Shown here piece after piece: positions 3,008-59,124 of a stretch of 64,000 bases of DNA; positions within the stretch are counted from its first letter, which is position 1; each line of letters opens with the position of its first letter. The stretch comes from Patescibacteria group bacterium (GTDB taxonomy: Bacteria > Patescibacteriota > Patescibacteriia > Patescibacteriales > UBA12465), in contig JBAZNJ010000001.1 in NCBI GenBank assembly GCA_041649315.1, positions 284,549 through 348,548 of the forward strand. Direction: 5' to 3'. Position numbers and translations under genes: made by a program. Under the pieces are notes generated by a model that was given only the letters and a program-made list of their open reading frames with translations, was not told the origin of the DNA and made no database searches.

Positions 3008-5500
3008 CTATTTAAGCGCCTCCTTTAAATACTTCCCAGTATAACTTTTCGCGACCTTCGCCACTTCTGGCGGCGTGCCGGCCGCCACGATTTGGCCGCC
3101 TTCGTCGCCGCCGCCCGGGCCTAAATCAATAACCCAATCCACCGATTTAATCACATCTAAATTATGCTCGATAATCAAAACCGTATTCCCCTGATCGACT
3201 AACATATTTAAAACTTTCAACAAGCGGTCAATATCCGCAAAATGCAAGCCGGTGGTCGGTTCATCTAAAATATATAGTGTCCGACCGGTGGCCCGACGCG
3301 ATAATTCGGTCGCGAGCTTAATGCGCTGGGCCTCGCCGCCGGAAAAAGTCGTCGCGCTTTGGCCGAGTTTAATATAGCCGAGACCGACTTCTTCTAAGGT
3401 TTTCAATTTCTGACTCAGGGCGGAATGATTCTTAAAAAATTCCGCGGCCTCAGCAACGGTCATTTCTAAAACTTCAAAAATATTCTTGCCTTGATATAAG
3501 ACCTCTAGGACTTTCGATTTAAAACGCCGACCGCCGCAAACCTCGCAAGTCAAATAAACATCGGATAAAAATTGCATCTCAACTTTGATAACCCCGTCGC
3601 CGGCGCAATTCTCACAGCGTCCGCCCGGCACATTAAAAGAAAAATGTCCGGCGCTCAAACCTTTAACCCGCGCTTCCGGAAGTTCCGCAAAAATATCCCG
3701 GATATAAGTGAATAAACCGGTATAAGTCGCCGGATTAGAGCGCGGCGTCCGGCCGATCGGCGACTGATCAATATCAATAACCTTGTCGATTAGCTCTAAG
3801 CCGGTGAGCGCCTGATGCGCGCCCGGCTCGGTTTTCGCTCGATAAAATTTCTTGCTCAAAGCGTTCGCCAAAATATCGCTCATCAAAGTTGATTTACCCG
3901 AACCGGAAACGCCGGTAATCGCCACTAATTTGCCGAGCGGAATCTCGACGTCAATATTTTTCAAATTATGTTCGGTCGCGCCGATAATCTTGATTGCTCC
4001 GCCGTTTCCTTTCCGAAATTGCGCCGGCATCTTAATCGCCTTCTTTCCGGATAAATAAGCGCCGGTCAATGATTCGCCGCATTTTTTAATTTCCGCCGGC
4101 GTACCGGTAAATAAAACCCGACCGCCATTATCCCCGGCGCCCGGTCCGATATCAACAAGCCAATCAGCCGCCAAAATCGTCGCGGCATCATGCTCAACCA
4201 CAATTACGGTATTTCCGTTATCGCGCAGACCTTTTAAAGTCGCGATTAATTTATCATTATCCCGCTGATGCAGTCCAATAGACGGTTCGTCTAAAACATA
4301 TAAAACGCCGCTCAAAGTCGAGCCGACTTGCGAAGCGAGGCGGATCCGCTGGGCTTCGCCGCCGGACAAAGTCATGGCCGGCCGGCTTAAAGTCAAATAA
4401 TCTAAACCGACATTAGCTAAAAAATCTAAATTTTTTATAATTTCTTTAATAATCGGTTCGCTGATTTCACGCTGGCCGTTTAAAGATGTCGTGCTCTTGA
4501 GCCAACTTTTCAATAAAGCTAAAAGATCTTTAATGCTTTTATTGGTCAATTCAATGATTGATAGGTTATTTATTTTTATTTCTAAAGATTCCGGTTTCAA
4601 ACGCGCGCCCTGACAATTCGGGCATAAAGAAACGCGCATAGTTTTTTCGATTTCGCCTTTAACAAAACCGGATTTTGTCTCATTATACTTATCCTCTAAA
4701 ACTTTCAATAGGCCGCTAAAAATCCCGTCGCCGGATAAAATTAATTTTTTCTGTTCCGGAGCAAGGTCTTTAATCGCCGGCCGCAAGCTAAAATCATGGC
4801 GGGCGGCCAATTCGTTCAACTCGGAAAACAAACCGTTGCCGCTTAAATTAACATGCGACAAGGGCTTAATCGCTCCCTCTAAAATACTGAGGTTATGATT
4901 AAATATCAATTCCGGATCAATTTCCGCCTTCGTGCCTAGACCGCCGCAAGCCAAACATGCGCCGCTTGCGGAATTAAAAGAAAAATCGCGCGGTTCCGGT
5001 TCGGCGCGGCGATAGTCGCAATTCGGACAAGAAAAAAACCGTTCCAATTTCGTGGATTTTATTTGGCGGCCGCGCACATTTTTAATCGTCTTTTTCTCCT
5101 GGCTATCCTTTTTTAATTTTACCTTGCAATGCGGACAGTATGGTTGACCGGCGCGGGCGTAAAGCAAGCGCAGATAATCATAAATTTCCGTAATCGTCCC
5201 GACGGTCGAGCGCGGATTATGACCGGTCGTCCGCTGATCGATAGAAATCGCCGGCGACAAACCTTCGATCAAATCGACTTCCGGCTTATTCATTAGGCCC
5301 ACAAATTGGCGGGCATAAGAAGATAAAGATTCAACATAACGACGCTGGCCTTCAGCATAGACCGTATCAAAGGCCAAAGAAGATTTTCCCGAACCGGACA
5401 AACCGGTAATTACCACTAATTTATCCCGCGGAATATCTAAATTGATATTTTTCAAATTATTAGTCCGCGCTCCCTTGATCCTAATGAAATTACCGGCCAT
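3008..5500 (-). CDS. uvrA: Excinuclease ABC subunit A (UvrA)
   Basis: Two ABC ATPase modules ([10 protein letters not shown] and [10 protein letters not shown] Walker A; LSGGEAQR signature twice) and zinc-finger cysteines (CPHC, CPNC). At 830 aa it is shorter than canonical UvrA, as in reduced genomes. Confidence 0.9.
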
Positions 5501-11972: not shown

Positions 11973-12013
11973 AGATTATTGGGGAAATTGAGGAGTGGAC
12001 GGAAATTTTAAGT
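11973..12013 (+). repeat. Partial third copy of the 3' portion of the 137-bp repeat (gagattattggggaaattgaggagtggacggaaattttaag)
   Basis: About 37 of 42 nt identical to 14048..14089 and 18978..19018. Confidence 0.7.
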
Positions 12014-12032
12014 TAAGCAGAAACTTTTTTTA

Positions 12033-12061
12033 TTGACAATCGTCTAATAATCGTCTATAAT
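12033..12061 (+). promoter_or_regulatory. Sigma70-like promoter for the Fic gene
   Basis: TTGACA, a 17-nt spacer, then TATAAT, ending 10 nt before the Fic ATG. Confidence 0.5.
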
Positions 12062-12071
12062 ATGACTATCT

Positions 12072-13100
12072 ATGTTTAAGCCAAAATATACAATTACAAA
12101 TAAATTATTAGCTAATATTAAAAGAATTAGTGAAATTACTACCGAACTAAACAGTCGTAATTTTTCAAATATAGTTTTGCTTAATATGGAAAAACGCGCC
12201 CGCGAAATATCGGCATATTCGTCAACCAGTATTGAGGGCAACCCCCTGCCTTTAACAGACGTAAAAAGAATTTTGAAAAATAAACCGGAGAACGCCAGGG
12301 ATAGCGAAAAAGAAGTTTTAAACTATAATAAAGCGCTAATTGAATTAGACGCTTTACTTAAATCCCGCCGGGAAATATTTAACATTGAATTAATATTACA
12401 AATTCAGCGGGCAATAACTAATGGTCTGATTGAAGATTATCGTTGCGGCCAAATTCGTCAAGAACCGGTTTTCGTAAACAATCCTAAAACGCGTCAAACC
12501 GTCTACCTGCCGCCCGACCATCAAGAAGTTGATAAACTATTAAATGAGCTTTTCTATTATTTGAGCGCCAATAAAGAAATAACCGACCCCTTGATTTTAG
12601 CCGGTCTTTTCCATAAACAATTCGTAATTATTCATCCTTTTATAGACGGTAACGGCCGAACGGCTCGATTAGCCACCAAGGCCTTGTTAGCCAAAATGGG
12701 GCTTAATACTTTTTATCTTTTTAGTTTTGAAAATTATTATAACAAAAATGTTAGTCGTTATTTTCAAGAAGTCGGCGTTTTAGGAAATTATTATGAAATT
12801 AAAGACGACATAGACTTTACTTCCTGGTTAGAGTATTTCACGGATGGTATTATTGATGAGCTCCTACGTGTTATTAAAGAGCTAGTTGAAGAAAATAGTT
12901 CTCCGGCCAAAGAATTAAAAGAGCATCATTTAAAAATAATAAATCACATAAAAAAGAGGGGGTATATTGCCGACAGGGATTATGCTCTATTAACTAAACG
13001 CGCCAAGCCGACGAGAAACTTAGATTTTAGAAAATTAATCGCCGATGGAATAATTGAAAAAGTCGGAAAAGGCAAGGCGACTTATTATAGGTTGAGATAA
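12072..13100 (+). CDS. Fic/Doc family protein (adenylyltransferase-like)
   Basis: Canonical Fic motif HPFIDGNGRTARL and a C-terminal winged-helix-like tail. Confidence 0.85.
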   Translation: MFKPKYTITNKLLANIKRISEITTELNSRNFSNIVLLNMEKRAREISAYSSTSIEGNPLPLTDVKRILKNKPENARDSEKEVLNYNKALIELDALLKSRREIFNIELILQIQRAITNGLIEDYRCGQIRQEPVFVNNPKTRQTVYLPPDHQEVDKLLNELFYYLSANKEITDPLILAGLFHKQFVIIHPFIDGNGRTARLATKALLAKMGLNTFYLFSFENYYNKNVSRYFQEVGVLGNYYEIKDDIDFTSWLEYFTDGIIDELLRVIKELVEENSSPAKELKEHHLKIINHIKKRGYIADRDYALLTKRAKPTRNLDFRKLIADGIIEKVGKGKATYYRLR

Positions 13101-13264
13101 AATGAGGGATTATTGCTGGCAAAAATTAAAGAGTCGCAATCAAGATTAAAAGATTACTATATTAAAAATTTAAAAGATAAAAATCTCTATGCTTAAAAAA
13201 ATTCAATTCAAGCTCGCAAAGGCGATTTTCTAAGCGTAGGCGTGCTTGAAGTCGTTGATTAAAT

Positions 13265-13915
13265 ATGACATTTGTTAAAAATAATCCTTATAAATTTGTG
13301 CTTGTAGGATTTCTTGTATTAGTATTTATTTGTACAAGTGTCTTTTTTATAGCAAAAAACAAAAAGCCAAGAAAAGAGCAGGAAGCGCTTTTATCAAGAG
13401 TTGATTATCGAATATTCGCTTGTGGCGAAGAAATATTATTAAAAATAGATAAAGAAGCTATCAAGTTTAAAAAAAATGGTTTGTTTGCGCGCAGTAAATC
13501 CGGGGAGATCATCGCTGACGGCTTAATTTTAAATGATGAGAATATTTCGCTAAATTCATTTTTTGAATTATTTGGCGGGACTATTGAATACACAGATAAT
13601 CATGAGGCCGAGCTTCGCATGCCAACTGAAACAGGCGTACGTGAATTTCAATCTGGAGATTTATGTAAGGGAAAAGAAGCGGATCTTTATGTAATAAATC
13701 ATCGAGTTGAAACAGGAACAACCCCATGGTCTATTTATTCGAGAATCATATGGAAATATTGGGATTATACTTTAATGAATAATTACGGCAAAGTTCCTCC
13801 TGGTGATTGTCTGATTTTTCTTTTTGATTCCGAGGATGTGTTAGACCGCCCATGGCCAACTTGCCCTTCTCACGATAGGGCGCTTGCTAATGGAGAATTA
13901 ATTTTAGAAAAATAA
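13265..13915 (+). CDS. Hypothetical protein with N-terminal TM anchor
   Basis: 216-aa ORF with an N-terminal hydrophobic helix. Confidence 0.4.
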   Translation: MTFVKNNPYKFVLVGFLVLVFICTSVFFIAKNKKPRKEQEALLSRVDYRIFACGEEILLKIDKEAIKFKKNGLFARSKSGEIIADGLILNDENISLNSFFELFGGTIEYTDNHEAELRMPTETGVREFQSGDLCKGKEADLYVINHRVETGTTPWSIYSRIIWKYWDYTLMNNYGKVPPGDCLIFLFDSEDVLDRPWPTCPSHDRALANGELILEK

Positions 13916-13951
13916 CCACTTTTTGTAAACGTTAACTGATTTAAAAATATA

Positions 13952-14089
13952 TTCGATTCCCCCGGCTAACGCCGTCTAATTAAAAAGCGCCCAGCTAACG
14001 CTGAGCCCTTTTTAATAGCCCTAAAATCTGAGGTTTGACAAAATTACAACGGGATTATTAGGGAAATTGAGAAGTGGGCGAAAATTTTA
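13952..14089 (+). repeat. 137-bp direct repeat copy 1 (left boundary of the methyltransferase/Z1 cassette)
   Basis: Near-identical to 18882..19018 (about 3 mismatches over about 137 bp). It begins with ttcgattcccccggctaacgcc. Confidence 0.9.
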
Positions 14090-14106
14090 AGGCGAAACGA
14101 TCCTCT

Positions 14107-14424
14107 CTAACCTTTCGTCAAAAGTCCTATAATCATTACAGTGGCAAATATTGCCCATATGATACTTATAAGGATTTTATTTTTCTTTTTTTCATCTCCT
14201 CTTTTTTTAGCTGTTGAATCAACCCAATCGTCTAAATAGTGTATCCCGAACATCAATAGAAAAAAGGCTATTATACTAATAAATGGTTTGTCGACCAAGT
14301 AGTTAGCGACATTTGTTGCAAAAACAAGAAAAGAAAACAATATTATAAAAAGAAAAATCAAAATATAGTAAATTAAATAAGTCATATTATTAATTAATTT
14401 TCTCTGCTGTAAGATATTCTGCAC
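14107..14424 (-). CDS. Small membrane protein
   Basis: 105 aa with three hydrophobic helices. Confidence 0.4.
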   Translation of the reverse strand: MQNILQQRKLINNMTYLIYYILIFLFIILFSFLVFATNVANYLVDKPFISIIAFFLLMFGIHYLDDWVDSTAKKRGDEKKKNKILISIIWAIFATVMIIGLLTKG

Positions 14425-14605
14425 GAGCTTCTTCGACTTCCTTTTCCATTATTTTAATTTTTTCAATCTCTTTCGGTGTTAGTGCTTTTTTAGAAGAATC
14501 AAATTTACCGCCGATCCACCCTCCCCCCATGAATTGTTTTCTATATTCTTTCAATCGTTGCTCAAGCTCCATATATTTTTTAAGAGTCTCTTTTTTATCG
14601 TTCAT
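14390..14605 (-). CDS. Small hypothetical protein
   Basis: 71 aa, charged and coiled-coil-like; overlaps the neighbouring ORF by 35 nt. Confidence 0.25.
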   Translation of the reverse strand: MNDKKETLKKYMELEQRLKEYRKQFMGGGWIGGKFDSSKKALTPKEIEKIKIMEKEVEEARAEYLTAEKIN

Positions 14606-14609
14606 AAAC

Positions 14610-14906
14610 TTATTGTTTATCTAGCTTATTTTTGAAATGCCTTTTTTCTGCCCTCATGCTGTAAGCAACGTCTTCAACCGCCACTAATTTACTTCTACTT
14701 AGTACAGTCTTTACCGCCCTTGGGATATCATCAAAGTAATTAAACATTTCATCGCTAGGCTTAACTCCTTTCGTTTGATTAGCCTCTAAATGAACATTGC
14801 CACATGTCCAAAATGGTATCTGTTTATTTTTATCCCCTACGTGATCCGGCAAATCATTCGTAAAAAAACGAATTGTTATGCCGATTGTTTTATTATCTTT
14901 CTTCAT
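14610..14906 (-). CDS. Hypothetical protein, upstream gene of the methyltransferase operon
   Basis: 98-aa ORF directly upstream of and co-oriented with the methyltransferase gene. Confidence 0.35.
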   Translation of the reverse strand: MKKDNKTIGITIRFFTNDLPDHVGDKNKQIPFWTCGNVHLEANQTKGVKPSDEMFNYFDDIPRAVKTVLSRSKLVAVEDVAYSMRAEKRHFKNKLDKQ

Positions 14907-14946
14907 AAGATTACTATATTGCTTAATAAAAATTAATAACTACGCT

Positions 14947-15984
14947 TTATTTTGCATACACATCTAGATGATCATATAACTTTTGTGCTTGCCTCTTAGC
15001 AAAAATCGGGGGAACGGCGTCTCCTATTAATCTTGAAACACTTATTAATCCAGCATAAGCAGGAAAATAGTAATTTATAGGGAAACTCTGAAGCAACGAA
15101 GCCTCTCTCATTGTAATTGCTCTATTCTTTGTTGGGTGCAAGTATCTGCCTTTTGAGGGATTGAAACAACCCCCAGTTAGTGTTGGGGCTACGTCATCCC
15201 ATTTTATCCTGCCGTATACATCTCGAAACCCCTCTGTTTTTATATGGCAAGGTAGCTGCTTTTTGAGAGCCGATCTACTCCCGCCATTTTTAGGTATTTT
15301 AGATATTAATTTTTTAATTCTTGGGGTATTTTTCAAAAATAACTTATGTAATGAATCCTCGGACCCGGCGGGATTCGGCAGATATTCTATCACGGACCTT
15401 ACCGTTTTTAACTTTTTATCAGGGTTAGGGAGTTCTGGCGCGCCGATTCTAGACGCCATAAAAATGAATCTTTTTCTCCGTTGTGGCGCACCGTAATTAG
15501 CAGCATTTAATATTGAACACACCGATTGATATCCAATTTCTTTTAAGTTCTTTTCAAATTTCTTAAATCGTTCGTCCAAAGATAGCCCTGGTACATTTTC
15601 CATAAGAACAGTTTTTGGTCTAATTTGTATGATTAGTCTCAAAAATTCAAATACCAAATCGTTTCTTGGGTCATCAGTACTTAATCTGTTTAAATTTTTT
15701 ATACGCGAAAACCCCTGACAAGGAGGACAACCGGCAAGCAAATCTAATTCGCCTCGTTTCACGCCAGCTGCCTTTAATAGACTTCGTCCGCTAACTTTCC
15801 GTATATCAGATTCAATTAAATTTGTTTTTGTGTGATTTTTTCTGTAGGTTAATGCTGCCAGGGGGTCAATTTCTACGGCAGCTTTAACTATAAAGCCTGC
15901 TTTTTTAAGGCCAAGAGACAAGCCGCCGCAACCAGAAAATAAATCCATTGCTTTGTATTTTTTTGTTTTCTTCTTACTACTCAT
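14947..15984 (-). CDS. dcm: DNA (cytosine-5)-methyltransferase
   Basis: Motif I DLFSGCGGLSLG, motif IV PPCQGFS (catalytic Cys) and ENV motif LMENVPGL. Confidence 0.9.
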   Translation of the reverse strand: MSSKKKTKKYKAMDLFSGCGGLSLGLKKAGFIVKAAVEIDPLAALTYRKNHTKTNLIESDIRKVSGRSLLKAAGVKRGELDLLAGCPPCQGFSRIKNLNRLSTDDPRNDLVFEFLRLIIQIRPKTVLMENVPGLSLDERFKKFEKNLKEIGYQSVCSILNAANYGAPQRRKRFIFMASRIGAPELPNPDKKLKTVRSVIEYLPNPAGSEDSLHKLFLKNTPRIKKLISKIPKNGGSRSALKKQLPCHIKTEGFRDVYGRIKWDDVAPTLTGGCFNPSKGRYLHPTKNRAITMREASLLQSFPINYYFPAYAGLISVSRLIGDAVPPIFAKRQAQKLYDHLDVYAK

Positions 15985-15989
15985 AAATA

Positions 15990-17987
15990 TTATCTTTCAA
16001 AACTAAAGGCTAATACATAGTTTCCCTCTGGAAATCTCAACGCTGGCCACCACACTTCAAGACCTTTGCTGCTTTTTTTAAGTTTATAAATATATAAAGT
16101 CGGTGCGTCTTTTGGGGCCAAATCGTCCTCTCCTCCAGAGAGGAAGTTTTGCGTTTCTCTTCTTGACTCGTTTAAATCTCGTCCCTTTTTAACCACAATG
16201 TAAGCTTTGTTTCCATAAAGAGATTTAATTTGATCTAATGCGGCGATTATTGTTTTGTGATTCCATAACTCGGCTCCGTATTCCGGATCATGCTCGCATT
16301 TCTGTATTATCTCTTGAAGTAATTCTATATTCACTTGCGAGCATGGCTGATTGTTATCAAATTGAGATAACATCTTATCGAGCCATACAGTGTTATCGGC
16401 CATTTCGTCAGTTCTTAATGGGTACGATGGGTTACAGTAACCACCAGCTACATAAAGACCAATCGAGTTAGGGTCGAGCACATTCGATCTAGTTGCGTGC
16501 AGAGGAGATGAAATAAAAATACCTTCAAACTTTCCTTCAGGGTATTTTTCTACTAAATCCCTAAGAGCGCTTTCCATTTGATGGATTAGACGAAAATGTT
16601 CGGACAATTTTTCAGGTAAAAATAATCTCGTTACTCCTAAATCATTTTGCCTGTACCCATACATTCTCGCATGCTGTAAAACGGTATCGGCATTTGGTTT
16701 TTTGGGATTTCGTCCATAATAGCTAACAAGTAAATTTTTGATTGTTACTCCTCGGCCTAATTTATTGCCCCCAACAAATATATTATAAACGGAATCGAGT
16801 TTTATTTCCTCATTGGAAGCAGCATTAATTAATTTTATACTTGCGCCGCGCAAATAAAATTTTATTTTATCAATAATTTTTTCAAATTCCGGCATGCCTT
16901 GTTGCGTCTGTTGTAAATCAACATAAGCCTCCTTGAACTGGGGCATTAACCTATCAACCTCAGCAAGCGGATAATTCTGAAACACGTTCATCGTTTCTTC
17001 CTTAAATTTATCTATCAAATTTACAATATACTGATGATCAATTTTCGTATGACTGACATGGCACAAAAAAGCATAGCCCTCTGCTGGGTTCTGTATTATT
17101 TTAAAAGTGGCCCCAATAAGAAATGTGCATAGGGCTTTTTTTAATCCCGTGGGGATTGTTCCACTCGGCGTTGGCTGATAGCTAGCATGAAGCAAATCTA
17201 CTTCTTCTAAGTCAACAGGTTTTAACAATTTGGAGCCAACCTCAAAAAACACATCGCCTCCAACATATCCTGGGCCGGGAGCGCTTAGAATAGTAAAGGA
17301 TGGCCTGTATCTGTGATCCGGCCTCTGTAAGAATAATGCTTGGGGAGTTGCGGTTACCTGTAAATAAGTATTAACAGGGAAAAAATCTCTAAACTGGGTT
17401 ATTATCTCATTGGTGCTACTGATTTGCTCACCACCTTTGCTGGTGTACGTGTTTAAACTAGCTTGATCGGCTTCATCATCAATAATGAGCGTTGACAACC
17501 CTTTCGCCCCGGCCTTTTTAAAGGCGTCTAACAAGCTACGTAATTTTGGTACACCCTTGGAACACACTATAGCAAAAGGAGTTGTGCGTATTTGTCTTTG
17601 GAATCTAGCCGGGTCATTCCAATCATCTTTTCCCATAACTGTTAATCCACGCAAAACTTTTCTTACTCTCTCTAGAGTTTGTTCATATAAAGGGTCATAA
17701 TTTGATGTTAATATTAATAAAAATTGAAAGCCATTGTCTACCGCCATTGCGGCAGCTACCGTAATAATACTTGTTTTACCGCTTTGAATAAGACCATATA
17801 ACAACCCATCGCTAGGATATTCTGGTGGCCCAGCAATTGGATCAACTGATTTTTCAATAAGTTTAGCCGCCTTTTCAGTTATCGCCACTATTGACTCAGG
17901 ATATTTTATTTCGTTGGCGAGTACGCTAAGAACTTCAGTCGTGTGTTGACCATCATGAATTAAAACTTTTTGGTTTTGTTCACTCAT
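15990..17987 (-). CDS. Z1 domain-like P-loop NTPase, probable restriction/defence partner of the methyltransferase
   Basis: Walker A-like GLIQSGKTSIITVAAAM and Walker B-like LIIDDEAD. The 665-aa protein sits immediately upstream of and co-oriented with the C5 methyltransferase, as Z1-domain proteins typically do. Confidence 0.6.
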   Translation of the reverse strand: MSEQNQKVLIHDGQHTTEVLSVLANEIKYPESIVAITEKAAKLIEKSVDPIAGPPEYPSDGLLYGLIQSGKTSIITVAAAMAVDNGFQFLLILTSNYDPLYEQTLERVRKVLRGLTVMGKDDWNDPARFQRQIRTTPFAIVCSKGVPKLRSLLDAFKKAGAKGLSTLIIDDEADQASLNTYTSKGGEQISSTNEIITQFRDFFPVNTYLQVTATPQALFLQRPDHRYRPSFTILSAPGPGYVGGDVFFEVGSKLLKPVDLEEVDLLHASYQPTPSGTIPTGLKKALCTFLIGATFKIIQNPAEGYAFLCHVSHTKIDHQYIVNLIDKFKEETMNVFQNYPLAEVDRLMPQFKEAYVDLQQTQQGMPEFEKIIDKIKFYLRGASIKLINAASNEEIKLDSVYNIFVGGNKLGRGVTIKNLLVSYYGRNPKKPNADTVLQHARMYGYRQNDLGVTRLFLPEKLSEHFRLIHQMESALRDLVEKYPEGKFEGIFISSPLHATRSNVLDPNSIGLYVAGGYCNPSYPLRTDEMADNTVWLDKMLSQFDNNQPCSQVNIELLQEIIQKCEHDPEYGAELWNHKTIIAALDQIKSLYGNKAYIVVKKGRDLNESRRETQNFLSGGEDDLAPKDAPTLYIYKLKKSSKGLEVWWPALRFPEGNYVLAFSFER

Positions 17988-17993
17988 ATAATT

Positions 17994-18470
17994 TTAATTA
18001 ATTACTATTTCCGGCCAATCCTGCAATGGTACCTTGTGGCTCAATTTTCCATTCGGACCCGCGACGGCATATTGCTCATTAAAATTTCTTTTAGCCGACA
18101 GCCACATGACAGCACCGTCCAAAAGAGTAGACGCCTCCGCCCAGTCTATAGCGCATACGCCATCCCCGCCGCACACAAGTGCAATAACACCCTTTACCCA
18201 TAGCTTCTCTGATTCAAGAAGAAAATTTACTTCTTCACTGCTAATAATGAAACGCCACGGGCTTTTAACTTTTGTCGAATATTTAATAAGAACGGCCGAT
18301 TTATCGTTGATAAGGTAGCCTATTCCAAACCGCTTAATATTAGAACATTTCTGAGAATTTAAGGCTCTGATGAGGGCTGAGCCATAGTAAAATTCTTGTT
18401 TGTCTATCATATATTGATGATATTTATATTTTAGCACTTTTTTCCAAAGACGGAAATTGCGAATAATCAA
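17994..18470 (-). CDS. Hypothetical protein, first gene of the methyltransferase/Z1 operon
   Basis: 158-aa ORF, 7 nt upstream of the Z1 gene. Confidence 0.35.
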   Translation of the reverse strand: MIIRNFRLWKKVLKYKYHQYMIDKQEFYYGSALIRALNSQKCSNIKRFGIGYLINDKSAVLIKYSTKVKSPWRFIISSEEVNFLLESEKLWVKGVIALVCGGDGVCAIDWAEASTLLDGAVMWLSAKRNFNEQYAVAGPNGKLSHKVPLQDWPEIVIN

Positions 18471-18721
18471 ATAATTTTAGTCCATTGATTCGCCTTCCAT
18501 TTTTTGCTATAATGCTCTCATAGACTTATTAATAAACAATAATAAGGCAGGAAGATAAAACCTAGCTACGGCTAGTCAGATTACGTCCATGAATTTAAAC
18601 ACGCAGTCTTCAATATAATAACGAGCAAAGTCTAAATCTTTGCCAACTCAACTTAAAACACGAGCAATATATCCGGATATATGACTTGTGTTTTTTGTTT
18701 GGCCGAGTGGCCGTCTTATCG

Positions 18722-18881
18722 GGATTACAGTCTACCCTAGGGGAATCATCGCCCTCGCCCGCCGCCGGCAAAGCGGCGGGCTAACTTGTCCTGGGTCAGC
18801 GTTAAGCATCCCCCGGATGCTTAGCGACGCTCTCCTTTTCGCTTCGCCTCCCGGCTCAGCTCAAGACTCGCTTCTGACCTG
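18722..18881 (+). repeat. GC-rich structured unit, copy 3, preceded by a partial copy of the tRNA-Glu 3' end (ccctaggggaatcatcg)
   Basis: Collinear with 19888..20060 (ccctaggggaatcatcgc...cttgtcc...gttcgattccc). Contains perfect hairpins gcccgccgcc/ggcggcgggc and taagcatc/gatgctta. About 60% GC against an AT-rich background. Confidence 0.7.
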
Positions 18882-19018
18882 TTCGATTCCCCCGGCTAAC
18901 GCCGTCTAATTAAAAAGCGCCCAGCTAACGCTGAGCCCTTTTTAATAGCCCTAAAATCTGGGGTTTGACAAAATTACAACGGGATTATTAGGGAAATTGA
19001 GAAGTGGACGGAATTTTC
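18882..19018 (+). repeat. 137-bp direct repeat copy 2 (right boundary of the methyltransferase/Z1 cassette)
   Basis: Near-identical to 13952..14089. Its last ~30 nt encode the C-terminus of the minus-strand NYN gene. Confidence 0.9.
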
Positions 19019-19713
19019 CAATCATCAGGTTTATGAAAGTCACCATTAATATCCACCATATCATCAAAAAATTGAGAATTTGCTAATGCCAATTTTCGAA
19101 TTATCTTTATGTCTTTATTTACGGCATCTTGAAGCTTATGATTGGTTTTTTTATAAGGGTTTAACAATCTTACTTTTAATCCATCACGACTATTTGCTAT
19201 TTTTATCGATTCCGCCAAATCAGAATCATTAGAAACTATTATGGCGACATCAAACTTTTTTTCATAAACATCTACAATTAGATGGGTGGCTAAATTTACA
19301 TTAGAACCTTTTTCTTCGGTTTTTTTGACAACCAGGTAATTTTTGCCAAGTAAAGGGAGTCTGGTTTGCGCTTTGTCGAATTCAACGTTAGCCTCTTGTC
19401 GGCCTGTTTTTTGACATTTTTCAGGCACAAACATTGTGGCCTCGTTTTCCAAAAAAGTTCCTGGTATTATTTCTAAATTAGGAAGAGTGCGCAGAGCTCG
19501 AAAATATGTTAACTGTCTAACCGGTTTATCCAAATCATCCTTGCGAGCCTTAGTGACAGCTGAAAAATATTTTATTTTTTTAATCTCATATTTTGGAAAA
19601 TAAAAACCGGCCAATTTGTTTAAATCTAGCCATTTATAACTAGTTCTCTTCAGGCTGCCATAGAAAAGATTAAAACCATCGACATATATATACGCCGTTA
19701 ATTTTTTTGCCAT
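18988..19713 (-). CDS. NYN domain (LabA-like) protein; start taken at the internal MAKKLTAYIYVDG
   Basis: YVDGFNLFYG N-terminal motif and IVSNDSDL acidic motif, both typical of NYN/LabA nucleases. Confidence 0.7.
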   Translation of the reverse strand: MAKKLTAYIYVDGFNLFYGSLKRTSYKWLDLNKLAGFYFPKYEIKKIKYFSAVTKARKDDLDKPVRQLTYFRALRTLPNLEIIPGTFLENEATMFVPEKCQKTGRQEANVEFDKAQTRLPLLGKNYLVVKKTEEKGSNVNLATHLIVDVYEKKFDVAIIVSNDSDLAESIKIANSRDGLKVRLLNPYKKTNHKLQDAVNKDIKIIRKLALANSQFFDDMVDINGDFHKPDDWKIPSTSQFP

Positions 19714-19887
19714 ATCACGTCTAGATAAAAGCAGAGGTCGCCTTACGGCGACCTCGCGTTCTGCCACCGAAGCGACAGAAGTAGTATATGACTATATTAT
19801 ATAGCAAGCGCTTGCTAATGTAAAGAGCTAAACTTTCGCTAATTCTACAAACAAAAAGAGAACTGGCACAAGCCAGTTCCCCGATAG

Positions 19888-20070
19888 TAGCCCCTAGGGG
19901 AATCATCGCGCTCACTCGCCGCCATAATGCGGCTCGTTCACTTGTCCGGAGTCGGCGTCGAGTCCTGCGCCAGCTCGGACTCGCCGGCGCTCGTTCGCTC
20001 GTTATTTCTTCCGAAATAACTCGCGCCTCGCTTCCGACTTGTTCGATTCCCGGCTCGACAATTACAAAAT
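19888..20070 (+). repeat. GC-rich structured unit A; begins with a 16-mer identical to the tRNA-Glu 3' end (tagcccctaggggaat)
   Basis: Homologous to 18722..18881. Hairpins gccgc/gcggc, gagtcc/ggactc and gttatttc/gaaataac. Followed by hairpin aaataacgcacaaagtgcgttatttt at 20071..20098. Confidence 0.7.
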
Positions 20071-20103
20071 AAAATAACGCACAAAGTGCGTTATTTTATT
20101 TTG

Positions 20104-20270
20104 TAGCCCCTAGGGGAATTCCGCCTCGCGGCGCTTAGCCGCGCCGCTCGTTGCCCGGACGGACCCGATAAACGCTCGCTCGCTCGCGTTTATCGTCGCT
20201 CGATTACTCGAATTCGCTCCGCTCATTCTCGTATCTCGCTCGCCGTCTGTTCGCTTCCCCTAGTTTACCA
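20104..20270 (+). repeat. GC-rich structured unit B; begins with tagcccctaggggaat and has ends that can pair (ctaggggaa / ttcccctag)
   Basis: Second tandem unit with the same layout (16-mer, GC-rich body, terminator-like hairpin) immediately next to tRNA-Glu. Confidence 0.65.
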
Positions 20271-20280
20271 CCCATTAATT

Positions 20281-20310
20281 AAAAAACTCTAACATTCGTT
20301 AGAGTTTTTT
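20281..20310 (-). terminator. Rho-independent terminator of tRNA-Glu
   Basis: aaaaaactctaacattcgttagagtttttt: perfect stem with a U-run in the minus orientation, directly 3' of the tRNA. Confidence 0.7.
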
Positions 20311-20316
20311 AATTAG

Positions 20317-20388
20317 TAGCCCCTAGGGGAATCGAACCCCTGTTATCAGGATGAAAACCTGGTGTCCTAACCACTAGACGAAGGGGCC
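20317..20388 (-). tRNA. tRNA-Glu (anticodon UUC)
   Basis: Reverse complement GGCCCCTTCGTCTAGTGGTTAGGACACCAGGTTTTCATCCTGATAACAGGGGTTCGATTCCCCTAGGGGCTA folds as a cloverleaf (GTCT/GGAC D-stem, GGGGG/CCCCT T-stem, TTCGATT T-loop, anticodon TTC). Confidence 0.9.
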
Positions 20389-24286: not shown

Positions 24287-25471
24287 CTATACCCTCTCCA
24301 TCACCACTACTTCCCGATAAACTTTCTGTCCGGGCCGGCCGTAAACAATAGTATCGCGGCCGGTTTTTTTTATAAATTCGCTTTGGCGCAAGCTCGCCGG
24401 AACCATATTTAAAATCTTAAACCCCTCGTAACGCGGCGCAATCGGACGCTGACCATAAAATAAAGGCCAAATCATGACAACACGGCCGCCCGGTTTCAAG
24501 ACCTCTTTAAATCCAACCAAAGCCGCGGAATAAAGCTCTTCGAGTTCAGCAATTACCGGCTTAAAATTAATCATTCCTCTCTGCGGCCCTAAAAACGGCT
24601 CGGTAATAATCGCGTCGCCGGAACCGGCTTTAATAAACTTCGCGATATCAACGGCATTTTTAACAACCAGTTTAGTCCGGCAATCTTCAATTTTATATAA
24701 TTCTTTAAGCCAGCTTAAATTTTTATAAGTATCATCAATCGCTTTCGGCGAAATATCCGAACCGAACAATTTTTTATAACCGAGCAGGGCGGCTTCGCTT
24801 AAAATCGTCCCGGAACCACAAAACGGATCAATAATTACGGCATTTTCATCGGTTATTTGCGCTAAATTAATCATAATCTGCGCCAATTTCGGCGGCAACA
24901 TACCGGAACGGTCGTCGCGCGCCGGCCGGCCAAAGTCGCGGCGGGATAAATCTTTAAAGGGCTGGACCGCTAAGGTTTCGCCGATTATCCATTGATTATT
25001 ATTTTTTATCAAAACAACCTCAATCCCCCGAGAAATTAACTTATTTTGGGTAATTACGACACTAGAAAGAGTTTTTTCACGGCTCACAACAAAACGCGAG
25101 CTGATTTTTTTCTCCGTAAAATATTTCTTTGCTTTCAGCCCTAAATCATTTTTATTAACTTCACCCTTCCCATAATTAGAAAAACCAAAATTAAATTTTC
25201 CGGTCGGACCGCTCGCCTGTTTGGCCGCGGCAATTTCCTGTATCTCCGCTACAAGATTTTTTTCCTCGCCGACCGGGATTTCCTTAATAATCCTTCCAAT
25301 TTTAATAATTCCTCCTAGGCGGGCGATAAGTTTAACGGTATCTATTTCCCGCTCAACTTCCGCCGCTAAAAAATCCGTCGCTAACAACCGTGGCTCTTTA
25401 ATATCCAAAACCGCAGCCAATTCGGCTAAAGAAAGGGCGGTGTTTGTGCCTAAAACAAAGAAGTATTTCAT
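24287..25471 (-). CDS. Putative RNA (guanine-N2) methyltransferase, Trm14/RlmL-like
   Basis: DPFCGSGTILSEAALLGY motif typical of the RlmL/Trm14 N2-guanine methyltransferase family; N-terminal THUMP-like region. Confidence 0.6.
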   Translation of the reverse strand: MKYFFVLGTNTALSLAELAAVLDIKEPRLLATDFLAAEVEREIDTVKLIARLGGIIKIGRIIKEIPVGEEKNLVAEIQEIAAAKQASGPTGKFNFGFSNYGKGEVNKNDLGLKAKKYFTEKKISSRFVVSREKTLSSVVITQNKLISRGIEVVLIKNNNQWIIGETLAVQPFKDLSRRDFGRPARDDRSGMLPPKLAQIMINLAQITDENAVIIDPFCGSGTILSEAALLGYKKLFGSDISPKAIDDTYKNLSWLKELYKIEDCRTKLVVKNAVDIAKFIKAGSGDAIITEPFLGPQRGMINFKPVIAELEELYSAALVGFKEVLKPGGRVVMIWPLFYGQRPIAPRYEGFKILNMVPASLRQSEFIKKTGRDTIVYGRPGQKVYREVVVMERV

Positions 25472-25752
25472 AATTTTATCTTATACTAATATGCCCCGGC
25501 TGACAATGATTACCCGATGCTATTGTAATTTCTCCGGCTTCATGCTAAACTAAGGGCACAAATTAATAAACCAATATCTTTCCCATATCTCGGGTGCCGG
25601 CTAAGCCGGATCGACTCAAGATAATTCCGCCGATTAACGAGCAGAATTAAAGGTATTCTTTAGCCCCAAAACTATGGAATACTTTGGGGATTTTATTTAA
25701 TAAGAGCAGGTTAGCTTGAGGAAGTTTCATGTTTATTGATAGATAATTTAAC

Positions 25753-25907
25753 GCCGTTCGCCGCCAGTATTCCTTCGCTTCGGTAATTTCTGTGGCAAAA
25801 TTCACCGCCTCTTCTCCGCCTCCGCGCCTAGCCGGCGCTCCGGCGGCCGGCGATAAATTTTGCTCTACGAAATTACAGGCGCTCAGGAACACTGTCGCCC
25901 GAACGGC
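25753..25907. mobile_element. GC-rich 155-bp MITE-like element with 13-bp terminal inverted repeats (GCCGTTCGnCGnC), copy 1
   Basis: About 90% identical to the reverse complement of 47857..48012. Ends are gccgttcgccgcc ... gtcgcccgaacggc. About 62% GC in an AT-rich intergenic context. Confidence 0.75.
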
Positions 25908-26000
25908 TACTAAGCTATTGATAAGGATGGAAGTTTCCCCATAAAAAAATCTTTTAGAAAAAATTTAAATGATTTTAAGCACCTCTCATTTATAATATCT

Positions 26001-26525
26001 ATGTCAAAAACAAAAAAAACCGGAACGACCCATTACGAGATTCTTTTTATCATCCCGAATAAATTCACGGATGAAGAAGCGAAAAAGCTTACGGAAGAAA
26101 TAGAAAAAACTCTAACGGAAAACAATGGCGAAATCAGCCATCGCGAATATTGGGGTAAGAAAAAATTAGCTTATCCGATTAAGCAAAACGTCTATGGGTA
26201 CTACGGGCTCTTTGAATTTGATCTAGAAGGGAAAGACCTGGCTAAAATCGACCAGACCTTCCGGCTCTCGACTAATATTCTCCGCCATCAAATTGTTATT
26301 AAAAAGAAAAAAAGCGATGAGGAGTTAGCACGGGAAAAGGAAATCCAGGTTAAAATCGATTCTAAAAAAGCTACGGAAGATAAAAAACGGGAAGAAAAAG
26401 TAAAAACTTCGTCCCCGTCCGCCACGAGCGCTTCCAAGGTTAAAGAAAAAACTGAGAAAAAAGTAGATCTAAAGGACTTGGACGAAAAACTGGAAGGCAT
26501 TTTAAATGCCAAGGATTTAATTTAA
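26001..26525 (+). CDS. rpsF: 30S ribosomal protein S6 with a lysine/glutamate-rich C-terminal extension
   Basis: HYEILFIIPN...REYWGKKKLAYPI, in an rpsF-ssb-rpsR arrangement. Confidence 0.85.
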   Translation: MSKTKKTGTTHYEILFIIPNKFTDEEAKKLTEEIEKTLTENNGEISHREYWGKKKLAYPIKQNVYGYYGLFEFDLEGKDLAKIDQTFRLSTNILRHQIVIKKKKSDEELAREKEIQVKIDSKKATEDKKREEKVKTSSPSATSASKVKEKTEKKVDLKDLDEKLEGILNAKDLI

Positions 26526-26550
26526 TTAATTTTTCTGAAGCCGCTCTTAA

Positions 26551-27036
<486 letters not shown>

Positions 27037-27093
27037 TTAATAAAAATAAAAGCGCCGCTTCCGTCTCGGACGGCGAGAATTAAAATAAATATT

Positions 27094-27306
27094 ATGAGCA
27101 ATAAAAAAACCAAAGAATGCTATTTCTGCGTTAATAATCTTGATGTTGATTATAAAGACACGCGCACTTTGCGTCGCTTCATCAACTTCTACATGAAAAT
27201 CTTGCCCGGCTCCCGGACCGGCGTCTGTGCCTGGCACCAGCGGAAACTCACGACCGCGATCAAACGCTCCCGCGTGATGGCGCTCTTGTCCGCGACTCAT
27301 AAATAA
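27094..27306 (+). CDS. rpsR: 30S ribosomal protein S18
   Basis: CYFCVNN...DYKDTRTLRRFI...GSRTGVCAWHQRKLTTAIKRSR. Confidence 0.9.
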   Translation: MSNKKTKECYFCVNNLDVDYKDTRTLRRFINFYMKILPGSRTGVCAWHQRKLTTAIKRSRVMALLSATHK

Positions 27307-27909: not shown

Positions 27910-28012
27910 ACGAGTTAAATCGAATAAAAACGCCTCTCCGCTCGGAGCGGCGTTTTGTGTTATAATGTAATTAATTAAAGAATTTATTATTTAGCTCGCT
28001 ATCCCCTATATT

Positions 28013-28492
28013 ATGGAAAAAAATTTAAAACAATTTTTAATAATTGCCAAACAAAAAAGTTATGCCGGGGGCGGAGAAAAACGCGCCAGAATTTTAACTA
28101 ATGGGCAAAAAGAATACTTGTTTAAAAAAGGCGATCTTAAATATATTGATAGATACCGAGGACATGAAAAATTTTCCGGACAAGAAAAAGTTTTTAAAGC
28201 GACCAAGCTAATATGGACTATGAAATATTCAGGGGGCGTGCTATCTAAAAAAATTTCTCCAGATGATATCTATGCGTTTTTAAGAAAGGCTCTGAAAATA
28301 ATTCCAAAAAATATTCCTTTTAGGGGACCCGAAAAGCTTGTTGAGGGGGATTATAAATACATAAATAAAACAAAAGGCGCTTTAAACGATTTTTCCGGGG
28401 AAGAAAAAATATTTTATAAAGATAAATTAATATATCAACTAAATTATAGTGGCGGGGCTAGTGAAAAAATAAATAACATAGCCATTTTTTGA
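28013..28492 (+). CDS. Hypothetical protein with an internal tandem duplication (two ~40-aa repeats, each ending (K/N)YSGG)
   Basis: KYIDRYRGHEKFSGQEKVFKATKLIWTMKYSGGVLSKK and KYINKTKGALNDFSGEEKIFYKDKLIYQLNYSGGASEK. Confidence 0.45.
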   Translation: MEKNLKQFLIIAKQKSYAGGGEKRARILTNGQKEYLFKKGDLKYIDRYRGHEKFSGQEKVFKATKLIWTMKYSGGVLSKKISPDDIYAFLRKALKIIPKNIPFRGPEKLVEGDYKYINKTKGALNDFSGEEKIFYKDKLIYQLNYSGGASEKINNIAIF

Positions 28493-30307: not shown

Positions 30308-30430
30308 ACAAATTATCATAAATCCGTTGAGGAACATTCAACGGATTTTTTATTAGGTTTTATGTTATAATGTAATTAATATGATAGTTTATTGTTTAGC
30401 TCTCTATCTTCTATAATAAATCACTAATTT

Positions 30431-47833: not shown

Positions 47834-47856
47834 TGATTTTATTTTTATGACCAGCA

Positions 47857-48012
47857 GCCGTTCGGGCGGCAATACTACTGAGCGCCTGTAATTTCGTAGA
47901 GCAAAATTTATCGCCGGCCGCCGGAGCGCCGAGTAGGCGGCGGAGGCGGAAAAGAGGCGGTGGATTTTGCCACAGAAATTACCGAAGCGAAGGAGTGTTG
48001 CCGACGAACGGC
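47857..48012. mobile_element. GC-rich 156-bp MITE-like element with terminal inverted repeats, copy 2 (inverted relative to copy 1)
   Basis: Its reverse complement aligns end to end with 25753..25907. Ends are gccgttcgggcggc ... gccgacgaacggc. Confidence 0.75.
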
Positions 48013-48207
48013 CAATAATTTATCGATAACAAAAAATTCCTCATAAAAAAATAATTTAGAAAAAATTTAAATAATTTTCACGCCTGATTTTATATAATAA
48101 AACCGCCCTTAGCCAAGGCGGTTTTTAAAATTCTTGACAATAGTCAAAAATTTAAAAATTTTAATCAAATTGGAAATTAGGATTTAGAAATTTGAAATTA
48201 AATATTT

Positions 48208-56743: not shown

Positions 56744-57121
56744 ATGAAAAAAATTTACAAACACTTACTTTCTCTTGCGATTATTTCCGCTTTTGCCGTA
56801 CCGCTAGTGGCCTTTGGACAAGCTGATTTCGGTCTAGAAAACGTTGAGAGCGGATTAAACAACAGCTTAGCGTCCGGAGATCCACGGGAAATCGTCGGCC
56901 GAATTATCCAGGTCGCTTTAAGCTTCTTGGGGGTAATCGCGGTGGTCATCATCTTATACGGTGGCTTTAAATGGATGACCGCGGCCGGGAACGAAGACAA
57001 AACCGCTGAAGCGAAAAAATTATTAGGCGCCGGCGTTATTGGTTTAGTTATTATCTTGGCTTCTTGGGCGCTCGCGACTTTCCTTCTTAACACTCTCAGC
57101 GAACAAATTTCAGCAACCTAA
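56744..57121 (+). CDS. Pilin-like two-TM secreted protein, array member 1
   Basis: Signal peptide, then IVGRIIQVALSFLGVIAVVIILYGGFKWMTAAGNEDKTAEAKKLLGAGVIGLVIILASWALATFLL. Confidence 0.6.
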   Translation: MKKIYKHLLSLAIISAFAVPLVAFGQADFGLENVESGLNNSLASGDPREIVGRIIQVALSFLGVIAVVIILYGGFKWMTAAGNEDKTAEAKKLLGAGVIGLVIILASWALATFLLNTLSEQISAT

Positions 57122-57136
57122 ATTTCAAGAAAATAA

Positions 57137-57210
57137 GTGATTCTCATTTCTAATGGGAATCACTGCCTTGGCCGCGAATCTGATTCCCGCCTAAGGCAGT
57201 GATTATTTTA
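57137..57210 (+). promoter_or_regulatory. Attenuator-like element: two mutually exclusive hairpins, the second a terminator
   Basis: gtgattctcat/atgggaatcact (57137-57164) overlaps gaatcactgcctt ... aaggcagtgatt (57157-57204; 12-bp perfect stem) followed by a T-run. Confidence 0.5.
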
Positions 57211-57666
57211 TCGGACCGGATTATGGCCGCGTCCTCTTTCGTTTATAAAATTATGTTTAAGAAAATAATTTTCATCTCCGTCTTATCTTGCTTCTCGCTG
57301 GCTTTTTTATTTTTAGTCCTTCCGGCTCCGGCGGCCCAAGCGCAGAATATAATATCTGATCCGAGTTCCGGTCTAGAAGAAACCCGAAGCCAAGTTGAAG
57401 CTTTCAAAGATCAAAAAGTTGAACCGACTTTATCCGGTTTCTTGGCGACTAAAGCCGGCCAGATTATTAGTTTAGTCCTATCTTTTGTCGGCGTCTTATT
57501 CTTAATCCTGATGATTTACGCCGGCATTACCTGGATGACGGCGCAAGGAAATGAACAGCAAGTTGCAAAATCAAAAACCCTAATGATCAACGCGGTAATC
57601 GGAATAATTATTGTCTTTGCCGCGTACGCTCTGACTTCTTTCATCGGCCAGGAGCTTTTACAATAA
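57199..57666 (+). CDS. Pilin-like two-TM secreted protein, array member 2 (true start probably the internal Met at about 57223-57253)
   Basis: ...AAQAQ signal peptide; KAGQIISLVLSFVGVLFLILMIYAGITWMTAQGNEQQVAKSKTLMINAVIGIIIVFAAYALTSF. Confidence 0.6.
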   Translation: MIILSDRIMAASSFVYKIMFKKIIFISVLSCFSLAFLFLVLPAPAAQAQNIISDPSSGLEETRSQVEAFKDQKVEPTLSGFLATKAGQIISLVLSFVGVLFLILMIYAGITWMTAQGNEQQVAKSKTLMINAVIGIIIVFAAYALTSFIGQELLQ

Positions 57667-57694
57667 GCCGTTTTACCCTAAACTCCCTATCCAA

Positions 57695-58108
57695 ATGTCT
57701 AAAATCTTCCTAAAAAAACTAGCTGCAATTTTCTTGATTTCTTTTTGCTTAACCGGCGCAACAGTGGCTTTAAGCGCACCGTCCGCTTTAGCTCAAGGGG
57801 AGAGTTATGATTTTAATCGGGACAGCGGCCTAACCAAGGCCGGAGACACGGCCGGCTATGAAACCGGAGCGGACCGAACCTCGGTTGAAGATATTATCAG
57901 TAATGTCATTTATGCGGTTCTGGGCTTAGTCGGTATTATCTTTTTCGGCTTTATAATCTATGGCGGCTTAATATGGATGACCGCGCAAGGTAATGAGGAA
58001 AAAATAAAAAAGGCCACGGATATCGTGATGAACTCTTTATTCGGCCTGATTATTACTTTAGCCGCTTACGGCATCGCCTACTTCTTAATCAGCTACTTTT
58101 GGCAATAG
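57695..58108 (+). CDS. Pilin-like two-TM secreted protein, array member 3
   Basis: IISNVIYAVLGLVGIIFFGFIIYGGLIWMTAQGNEEKIKKATDIVMNSLFGLIITLAAYGIAYF. Confidence 0.6.
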   Translation: MSKIFLKKLAAIFLISFCLTGATVALSAPSALAQGESYDFNRDSGLTKAGDTAGYETGADRTSVEDIISNVIYAVLGLVGIIFFGFIIYGGLIWMTAQGNEEKIKKATDIVMNSLFGLIITLAAYGIAYFLISYFWQ

Positions 58109-58111
58109 TTT

Positions 58112-58528: not shown

Positions 58529-58589
58529 ATTAAGCAGGCAAGCTCACTTATTTGAAAATTTGGGATACTTTAAACTATAAATAAGCTAT

Positions 58590-59120: not shown

Positions 59121-59124
59121 CTTT

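Follow-up and report, generated by a model that had tools for sequence, protein, structure and literature searches.

Results

Two inverted copies of one long hairpin

The window, by which we mean the whole 64-kb stretch of DNA analyzed here, contains two copies of a GC-rich intergenic element. Copy A (25753..25907, plus strand, 155 nt) lies between a divergent methyltransferase (MTase) gene (24287-25471, minus strand) and the rpsF-ssb-rpsR-efp operon, which starts at 26001. Copy B (47857..48012, minus strand, 156 nt) lies between SMC, which ends at 47833, and a ComM/YifB-like gene (comM) that starts at 48208. In NCBI, homologues of the flanking proteins carry the annotation Patescibacteria group or Candidatus Falkowbacteria. 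Copy A, a long form of the family described below, stands in the reference ('displayed') sense; the reference sense of copy B is on the minus strand.

A first-pass annotation of this DNA had described two copies of about 90% identity in opposite orientation. Alignment of 25753-25911 with the reverse complement of 47853-48012 bore this out (144/160, 90% identity), with one stretch of 54 nt identical between the copies. On the same strand, copies A and B were 63% identical because a palindrome resembles itself; the element is 66% identical to its own reverse complement. It is GC-rich, as described, at 59% against 39% across the whole window. The family covariance model found two copies in the 64 kb, at 102 bits each, with the next match at 18 bits; with this model (R1), copy A scored 102 bits on the plus strand and 25 bits on the minus strand.

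Each copy folds as a single long imperfect hairpin of -71 to -90 kcal/mol, depending on the strand (z = -5.5 to -8.3; an equally good fold in 0 of 200 shuffles). The two copies have 8-bp perfect ends, GCCGTTCG at the start and CGAACGGC at the finish. These 'inverted ends', put at 13 bp in the first pass, are the base of one hairpin that spans the entire element. The family core with its apex occupies 25781..25881 (plus strand) in copy A and runs from CGGTAATTTC to AAATTACAGGCG; the loop strands CGCTT and CTC that flank it are conserved too. The inverted homology had been assigned to the GC-rich core, which it does cover, but it also extends into AT-rich outer arms, 25717-25752 corresponding to 48013-48044. 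At locus A, the hairpin and its outer arms (25717-25752 and 25908-25936) make up a full block at 25717..25936 (plus strand). At locus B, the right arm (48013..48044) shares homology with each of the two outer arms of copy A, and the left arm is shortened (47834..47856), beginning immediately 3' of the SMC stop codon.

A Logan contig (L001, from SRR8542065) that is 100% identical to window positions 25857-27140 starts within the 54-nt stretch of copy A that is identical in copy B. The element thus breaks short-read assemblies, and its misannotation as a small RNA is possible.

Gain and loss of the block between relatives

The element is absent at both loci in three more distant lineages (~70% protein identity). 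In L004/5, L006/7 and L008/9, whose ComM is 71-73% identical, the SMC-comM spacer measures 107-135 nt, compared with 374 nt here, and has no hairpin; the left AT-rich arm of copy B is also missing at the empty sites of L004, L006 and L008. Likewise, the hairpin is missing from the MTase-rpsF spacer in L069-L074 (rpsF 70-74% identical), where this spacer is 263-307 nt long in L070-L074, compared with 529 nt here. The covariance model detected zero copies at the empty sites of these relatives. An exact look-up of the SMC protein for further alleles of locus B returned no record.

A much closer empty allele was present in L075, L076 and L077, which are the ENA, JGI and NCBI records of one lineage and whose rpsF falls in the window's 90% cluster. 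Across the rpsF operon, their DNA matches the window at 96-97% identity, and in the flanks of locus A at 90-97%. In this lineage, 220 nt of locus A (25717-25936, both arms and the hairpin) are replaced by the 9 nt AGGGCCTAG. The junction reads ...gagcaggttagct AGGGCCTAG ccccataaaaaaatcttttagaaaaaatttaaat..., homology with the window stopping at 25716 and resuming at 25937, and comparison of the filled window with this 96-97% identical empty allele revealed no target-site duplication at locus A. At locus B, where the empty alleles are distant, deleting the block together with one TAA restores the 8-nt spacing between stop codon and motif seen at the empty sites, which would be compatible with a TAA duplication. 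A target-site duplication consistent across loci was sought and not found. An 8-nt match, GCCTAGCC, between the region of the 9-nt filler in L075 and the apex of copy A was left unused (chance probability ~0.05 by our estimate).

Gain or loss affects the whole block and leaves no target-site duplication, and the hairpin is an insertion/deletion polymorphism. It is not a conserved syntenic RNA, which the empty orthologous sites exclude; the case that the first pass had named against its own proposal, a conserved structured RNA at both loci in all relatives, is contradicted by the empty loci of these relatives.

Comparison with L075 also showed that CCCCATAAAAAAATCT is flanking DNA at locus A, and copy B has the homologous CCTCATAAAAAAATAA beside its arm. 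Homology between the two loci runs unbroken from the core through the arm and CCnCATAAAAAAAT into the AT-rich tail described below. Such continuity into flank and tail would point to a recombination copy that took flanking DNA with it and was anchored in the tail; to judge from these alignments, transposition with defined ends would fit less well.

The AT-rich tail as host promoter-like DNA

To the right of both copies, the first pass had noticed an AT-rich segment in the same orientation. This segment was confirmed as a direct repeat of 63 nt (25935-25997 and 48037-48099) with 78% identity. Both tails carry the exact 18-mer TTTAGAAAAAATTTAAAT, which occurs at no other place in the 64-kb window; a search of the window allowing three mismatches gave matches at chance level. 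With only two sites in the window, the exact 18-mer was rejected as a common promoter motif of this genome. The promoter-like rpsF tail (25953..25996, plus strand) lies outside the element and reads TTTAGAAAAAATTTAAAT-N20-21-TATAAT, with the rpsF ATG at 26001, 4 nt downstream. The comM tail (48055..48098, plus strand), which is also promoter-like and outside the element, is followed by a hairpin and T-run at 48102-48126. A TATAAT had been placed before both genes. This is correct for rpsF, but at comM a terminator-like hairpin and then a second promoter-like site (TTGACA) intervene between TATAAT and the gene.

The tail is also present at sites from which the element is missing. At rpsF, it is kept in the element-less L069, L070, L073 and L075, and in L069-L074 the tail motif precedes TATAATAACTATG, a stretch that contains the rpsF start codon. 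The comM tail is kept at the empty SMC-comM sites of L004, L006 and L008; L004/5, L006/7 and L008/9 show TTTAGAAAAAATTTAAAT (exact in L008), ~20 nt, TATAAT and a small hairpin with a T-run. Because empty sites at both loci retain the tail, it is an ancestral promoter-like module and not cargo of the element. Accordingly, we rejected one half of the initial suggestion, that the element carries a promoter module, and kept the other, that it lands beside one: the AT-rich tail is pre-existing host promoter-like DNA, and the element landed just upstream of it.

Both copies lie upstream of the 18-mer, at 16 nt for copy A (from the block end at 25936) and at ~10 nt for copy B. The position of both copies beside the sole two exact 18-mers in 64 kb is not explained by random insertion; a target preference, homology-anchored copying or simply tolerated gaps could account for it. 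Sigma-70 promoter and terminator scans around both copies remained at chance level, and neither sense of the element showed a -10 box at a constant distance from it.

Several features of the host DNA in these intergenic regions were noted alongside. The rpsF ATG has no Shine-Dalgarno sequence and stands 4 nt past TATAAT (25991-26003), an arrangement kept in relatives as TATAATAACTATG; judged by its sequence, the rpsF-ssb-rpsR mRNA looks leaderless. At 25540-25695 there is a leader-like region with a terminator-like hairpin at its end (ccccaaa...tttgggg then attttattt, 25664-25694), conserved between the MTase gene and rpsF in L070, L073 and L075. This region had no significant match in Rfam (best RAGATH-35, E = 3) and may be an undescribed small RNA or attenuator. 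Between the MTase gene and this conserved leader, L075 has ~300 extra nt (131-435) that end in a terminator-like hairpin, are missing from the window and gave nothing significant against Rfam. Upstream of comM, the TATAAT of the tail directly abuts the short GC hairpin and T-run (48093-48126), and this arrangement is conserved at ~71-73% ComM identity (L004 ~3990-4030, L006 and L008). A promoter that leads into a terminator-like hairpin at comM could serve as a 5'-terminal stabilizer or an attenuator, or could make a tiny RNA.

In-place inversion of the hairpin

The SMC-comM locus was also found filled in L003, which comes from the same ENA sample as L075, and in L053 (JGI), which is 100% identical to L003 over 2.7 kb. 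The copy in L003/L053 is orthologous to copy B and bears copy-B-specific stem variants. When the 156 nt of copy B were compared with L003, 143 of 156 positions (91.7%) matched without gaps in inverted orientation, against 67% in direct orientation. The right flank of L003, on the other hand, matched the window directly (93.5% over 199 nt), and the AT-rich arms are co-linear too. The inverted segment in L003/L053 is exactly GCCGTTCG to CGAACGGC. These results show that the opposite orientation of copies A and B is an in-place hairpin inversion, and they bear out the invertible segment that the first pass had raised as its alternative. The core of L003 is oriented to the tail like that of copy A in the window, and the most parsimonious account is an inversion of copy B in the lineage of the window.

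A second flip was found at hrcA, where the leader copies in L054 and L056 have opposite orientations. Thus, two of the five orthologous pairs (window/L003 and L054/L056) differ in orientation. In both L054 and L056, a CIRCE-like operator (TTAGCACTC-N9-GAGTGCTAA) and its promoter (TTGACT-N17-TATAAT) precede the element and the hrcA start codon follows it; the element is therefore transcribed in the two genomes in opposite senses. The two orientations of a locus were seen in comparisons between lineages (window versus L003/L053; L054 versus L056). Among copies with a co-directional neighbor gene, the reference sense was on the coding strand in 7 and on the opposite strand in 11. No promoter-like site was found inside the flipped segment.

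A low-copy family with a nearly invariant core

Further copies were collected in two scans, one with an exact core 18-mer against GTDB genomes and the other with CGGTAATTTC-gap-AAATTACAGGCG against JGI metagenomes, a pattern that matched all seven then-known copies and nothing else. Combined, the scans gave 20 distinct copies in Patescibacteria. Five copies, on four or more contigs, are long forms of ~156 nt and occupy four loci: MTase/rpsF, SMC/comM, a hypothetical gene/dnaG and the 3' end of ligA. The other 15 are short forms (~120-130 nt in model matches) without the GC-rich apical extension. The GCCGTTCG...CGAACGGC ends, or a close variant, are confined to the 5 long forms, and the 15 short forms have unrelated arms. 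With a covariance model built from the family alignment, each copy reached 95-118 bits in one sense, against 25-45 bits in the opposite sense.

Large contigs carry 1-4 copies each, and one 809-kb scaffold has, among the fetched loci, 3 full copies and 1 inverted half-copy. All 20 copies are intergenic, in either orientation, and lie tens of nt from neighboring stop or start codons; the neighbors are housekeeping genes, encoding GAPDH, TIM, a class II aminoacyl-tRNA synthetase, RuvX, an ExoIII-like nuclease, an RseP-like protease, HrcA, LigA and DnaG. In L042, an isolated inverted half-core (4534-4593) adjoins a full copy and could be what is left of a second copy or of a partial template-switch duplication.

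The asymmetric core of ~60 nt consists of two nearly invariant half-cores, 5' CGCTTCGGTAATTTCTGKGG and 3' CTCKACGAAATTACAGGCGCTC. Because the half-cores are imperfect inverted copies of each other, they form fixed bulges and internal loops. A variable apex hairpin lies between them, and copy-specific complementary arms enclose them. Outer arms and apex differ in sequence in almost every copy with pairing kept: 91% of cells were paired, as opposed to 36-50% with partner columns slid by 1-3, and double-sided changes were found in 147 cells, as opposed to 27-39 in the slid controls. In the outer stem, 13 of 14 pairs show variation on both sides; in the apex, pairs 49/116, 54/111 and 55/110 covary, and the half-cores are invariant. 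One-sided (G-U type) changes numbered ~10 by our own tally of the per-pair table. Watson-Crick pairs account for ~95% and G-U pairs for ~5% of all pairs, with no convincing strand bias (62 versus 43 G-U pairs by sense, of ~1000; two of those in the reference sense are invariant core pairs). As no convincing G-U bias was apparent across the family, we withdrew an assignment of the strand from folding energy, by which A(-)/B(+) had been favored by ~16-17 kcal/mol. An 8-bp duplex, GTAATTTC/GAAATTAC, is the same in the hairpins of both strands.

Exact core patterns were the means by which every copy outside the window was detected, so that pairs with a decayed core would escape detection and the invariance of 22-28 pattern positions is partly by construction; ~34 unselected core positions are still almost unchanged. 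In two orthologous pairs (L045/L068 and L049/L065; loci 71-77% identical), the core was 96-100% identical, and identity outside it was 70-88% in the arms, 57-60% in the apex and 44-78% in the flanks. The arm differences in these pairs were compensated, including transversions. A core that is almost unchanged where the flanks of orthologues have diverged by 20-50% suggests a putative recognizing factor.

Among the long forms, all four arm-apex combinations occur (winA, winB/L003, L051 and L063), a sign of exchange among copies. L048 and L054 have common inner arms and different outer arms, a pattern compatible with arm extension or gene conversion between copies.

Searches for mobilizing genes and known families

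No transposase, invertase or integrase was found within ~10 kb of either copy, and the remark of the first pass that no invertase gene lies nearby held. Nor was a recombinase or transposase found in the window ORFs at ~11-53 kb or among the Pfam-checked genes beside 12 other copies, all of which were housekeeping or defense genes. The neighbors checked, in stretches of up to 8-14 kb around the matches, included no RAYT (Y1 HUH) gene. BLAST against phage and plasmid collections and a pattern scan of viral contigs gave zero matches. In Rfam 15, the element was unmatched at the gathering threshold and at E < 10 (long form) or E < 1 (short forms).

Other repeats in the window

Three other regions of the window carry repeats. 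At 11974-20388, direct repeats of 136 nt (13952-14087 and 18882-19017; 97% identical) bracket genes for a C5 DNA methylase and a Z1-domain protein and a small ORF, with Fic-domain and NYN-domain genes just outside; shorter repeats (18860-18891, 20020-20051 and 20228-20259) lie next to a tRNA gene at 20317-20388. This region looks like an integrated defense island. At 56744-59544, six co-directional ORFs of 125-176 aa, with repeats ~390-610 nt apart, look like a tandem family of paralogous genes. A direct repeat of 62 nt (27952-28013 and 30357-30418; 82% identical) that contains TGTTATAAT precedes a DUF5680 gene at one site and another small ORF at the other, and has the look of a promoter region that was duplicated.

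Discussion

The element family described here matches nothing in the libraries searched, and its best reading is a new family of REPIN/ERIC-like elements. To the fuller proposal, that these are non-coding quasi-palindromic intergenic elements forming a low-copy family in Patescibacteria, whose arms are maintained and whose core is flipped by template switching, we give roughly even credence.

In this proposal, template switching during replication, or recombination between the element's own inverted arms, would flip the asymmetric interior, and a dedicated invertase would not be needed. The same process would keep the arms Watson-Crick perfect and could extend them. New copies would come from copying of a recombination type, in which flanking DNA can be taken along, and not from cut-and-paste between defined ends. 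The element would be transcribed as a passive long hairpin in neighboring mRNAs, and a putative trans-acting factor would recognize the asymmetric core in either orientation and thereby keep it constant.

Template switching is known to invert the sequence between inverted repeats, to compensate several bases in one step, and to create perfect stems or lengthen them (PMC8794818, PMC8604942, PMC13100816). The flips, the Watson-Crick-only covariation and the copy-specific arms of the element resemble these outcomes, and Watson-Crick-only compensation is what template switching predicts (PMC8794818, PMC8604942, PMC13100816). Arm homogenization, arm extension and spacer inversion, three predicted effects of template switching, would thus come together on one element of 100-160 nt. 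Two differences should be noted. Published inversions mostly concern 4-8 nt loops or short spacers, whereas the segment here is a structured core of 156 nt; moreover, the event itself is inferred here.

By analogy, the architecture of the element is closest to REPINs and its behavior is closest to ERIC sequences. REPINs have two inverted conserved units and a sequence-variable spacer that keeps its hairpin potential via compensatory changes (PMC3116915). All of these traits recur here, in elements that are likewise intergenic and non-coding. GTAG-tagged REPs form a known superfamily (PMC3733652), and a GTRG-like tetranucleotide is found here at the foot of the inner hairpin: GTAG on one half only, in 15 of the 20 copies, with GTGG or GGGG on the other half-core. 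Unlike the units of REPINs, however, the half-cores are not themselves small palindromes but pair with each other, and there are few copies per genome instead of tens to hundreds. The element differs further in its extra copy-specific outer arms, in its phylum (Patescibacteria) and in that no RAYT gene was found among the neighbors checked.

The ERIC/IRU sequences of enterobacteria are, like the element here, imperfect palindromes of ~100-150 nt with a well-conserved center. They too occur in transcribed intergenic regions, in either orientation and at low to moderate copy number, and are present or absent at orthologous sites. To our knowledge, neither the mobilization nor the function of ERIC has been established. 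No sequence relationship to ERIC was established for our family, which differs in outer arms unique to each copy and in documented in-place flips between orthologous loci.

A conserved asymmetric core would imply recognition by some factor. Our leading guess, drawn from REP/RAYT logic, is that DNA or a cruciform would be recognized. Both orientations persist with an intact core, which favors an orientation-independent role, be it through recognition of DNA or a cruciform or as a replicator in a REP/RAYT-type relationship; a strand-specific RNA role seems less likely, although strong conservation of an asymmetric core is also expected of a strand-specific RNA motif.

In its fullest form, this RNA reading takes the element as a cis-acting or processed structured RNA in operon mRNAs, whose loops bind a protein or are cleaved (e.g., once RNase III has cut the long outer stem) and which would regulate flanking genes at the level of stability or expression. 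It would account for internal loops and bulges that are invariant next to helices that covary, and for the 96-100% conservation of the core in orthologous pairs with flanks of 44-78% identity. It also suits the certainly transcribed position between promoter and hrcA start codon in L054/L056, and the tight gaps between tandem genes that the elements occupy. We nevertheless consider it unlikely. With the two orientations about equally frequent (7 versus 11) and two of five orthologous pairs flipped, the conserved loops would be present as their complement in every second transcript. In addition, G-U pairs are at ~5% without strand bias, Rfam gave no match even at E < 10, and a promoter of its own at a fixed distance neither fits in the gap nor was detected.

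Orientation would be irrelevant, and few copies per genome would be needed, if the element were a site acting at the DNA level, recognized as cruciform or duplex by a host DNA-binding or processing protein (e.g., in replication, recombination or chromosome organization). The strong constraint on the core despite indifference to orientation, Watson-Crick-only pairing symmetric between the strands, the 1-4 copies per large contig and the 8-bp GTAATTTC/GAAATTAC duplex shared by the hairpins of both strands are all in line with such a site. We hold it to be improbable, however, given that positions vary and orthologous loci of related genomes are empty, a poor fit to an essential chromosomal site. 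There is also no candidate protein, and recent duplication and loss within one lineage resemble the dynamics of an element more closely. We view with the same reserve the possibility that the invariant core is a functional RNA or DNA recognition module and that recombinase-free, arm-driven flipping acts as a heritable on/off switch for rpsF-ssb-rpsR, comM and hrcA. If true, this would be a structural 'self-inverting' regulatory element in ultra-small Patescibacteria genomes, kept by purifying selection across genera.

The first pass had proposed a MITE-like mobile element. Its mobile part stands, in that the family is dispersed and indel-polymorphic; the MITE part is not supported, in view of the missing target-site duplication at locus A, the unconserved termini, the low copy number and the lack of a transposase near the checked copies. 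Like Correia/NEMIS and other bacterial MITEs, the element is small, non-coding, bounded by inverted repeats and strain-polymorphic, and can adjoin promoters. Those MITEs have terminal repeats conserved across the family and target-site duplications (TA in the case of Correia), neither of which was found here. For a classical MITE to apply, a transposase encoded elsewhere would bind GCCGTTCG... terminal inverted repeats (TIRs), generate a short TA/TAA duplication and prefer tail-adjacent sites. Presence/absence polymorphism at both loci, common GCCGTTCG...CGAACGGC ends or a close variant in five long forms at four loci, the empty-site spacing of 8 nt that is restored at locus B when the block is removed together with one TAA, and the position of both window copies 16 nt and ~10 nt upstream of the same 18-mer would each fit. 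This explanation is nonetheless quite improbable in our estimate: against the 96-97% identical empty allele of locus A there is no duplication but nine unrelated nt, and the termini of the 15 short forms are entirely different around an invariant interior. Copies are few (2 in 64 kb; 3 and a half-copy among the fetched loci of the 809-kb scaffold), no transposase lies near the checked copies, the phage, plasmid and viral collections gave no matches, and the long forms L051 and L063 are not beside the tail motif.

Finally, a programmed phase-variation switch (inverton), in which a site-specific recombinase acts on GCCGTTCG/CGAACGGC to toggle the adjacent operon, is very improbable: although the breakpoints coincide with a perfect 8-bp inverted repeat, the flip separates lineages that are 92-98% identical in their flanks, and the element lies directly upstream of the rpsF and comM promoter-like motifs and within the hrcA leader, neither an invertase nor an integrase was found up to ~10 kb from either copy or beside the other checked copies, the flipped segment has no promoter-like site, and the inverted repeats are different in every short form, so that one recombinase could not recognize all copies.

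A REPIN/ERIC-like family remains our preferred reading. The genomes of Patescibacteria are very small and dense in genes, and few repeats or mobile elements are known from them. A conserved family of intergenic hairpins that appear, disappear and turn around between near-identical lineages would be a further source of structural variation in this phylum, and the identity of the putative factor that recognizes the core would tell REPIN/RAYT-type replicators from a host regulatory device.
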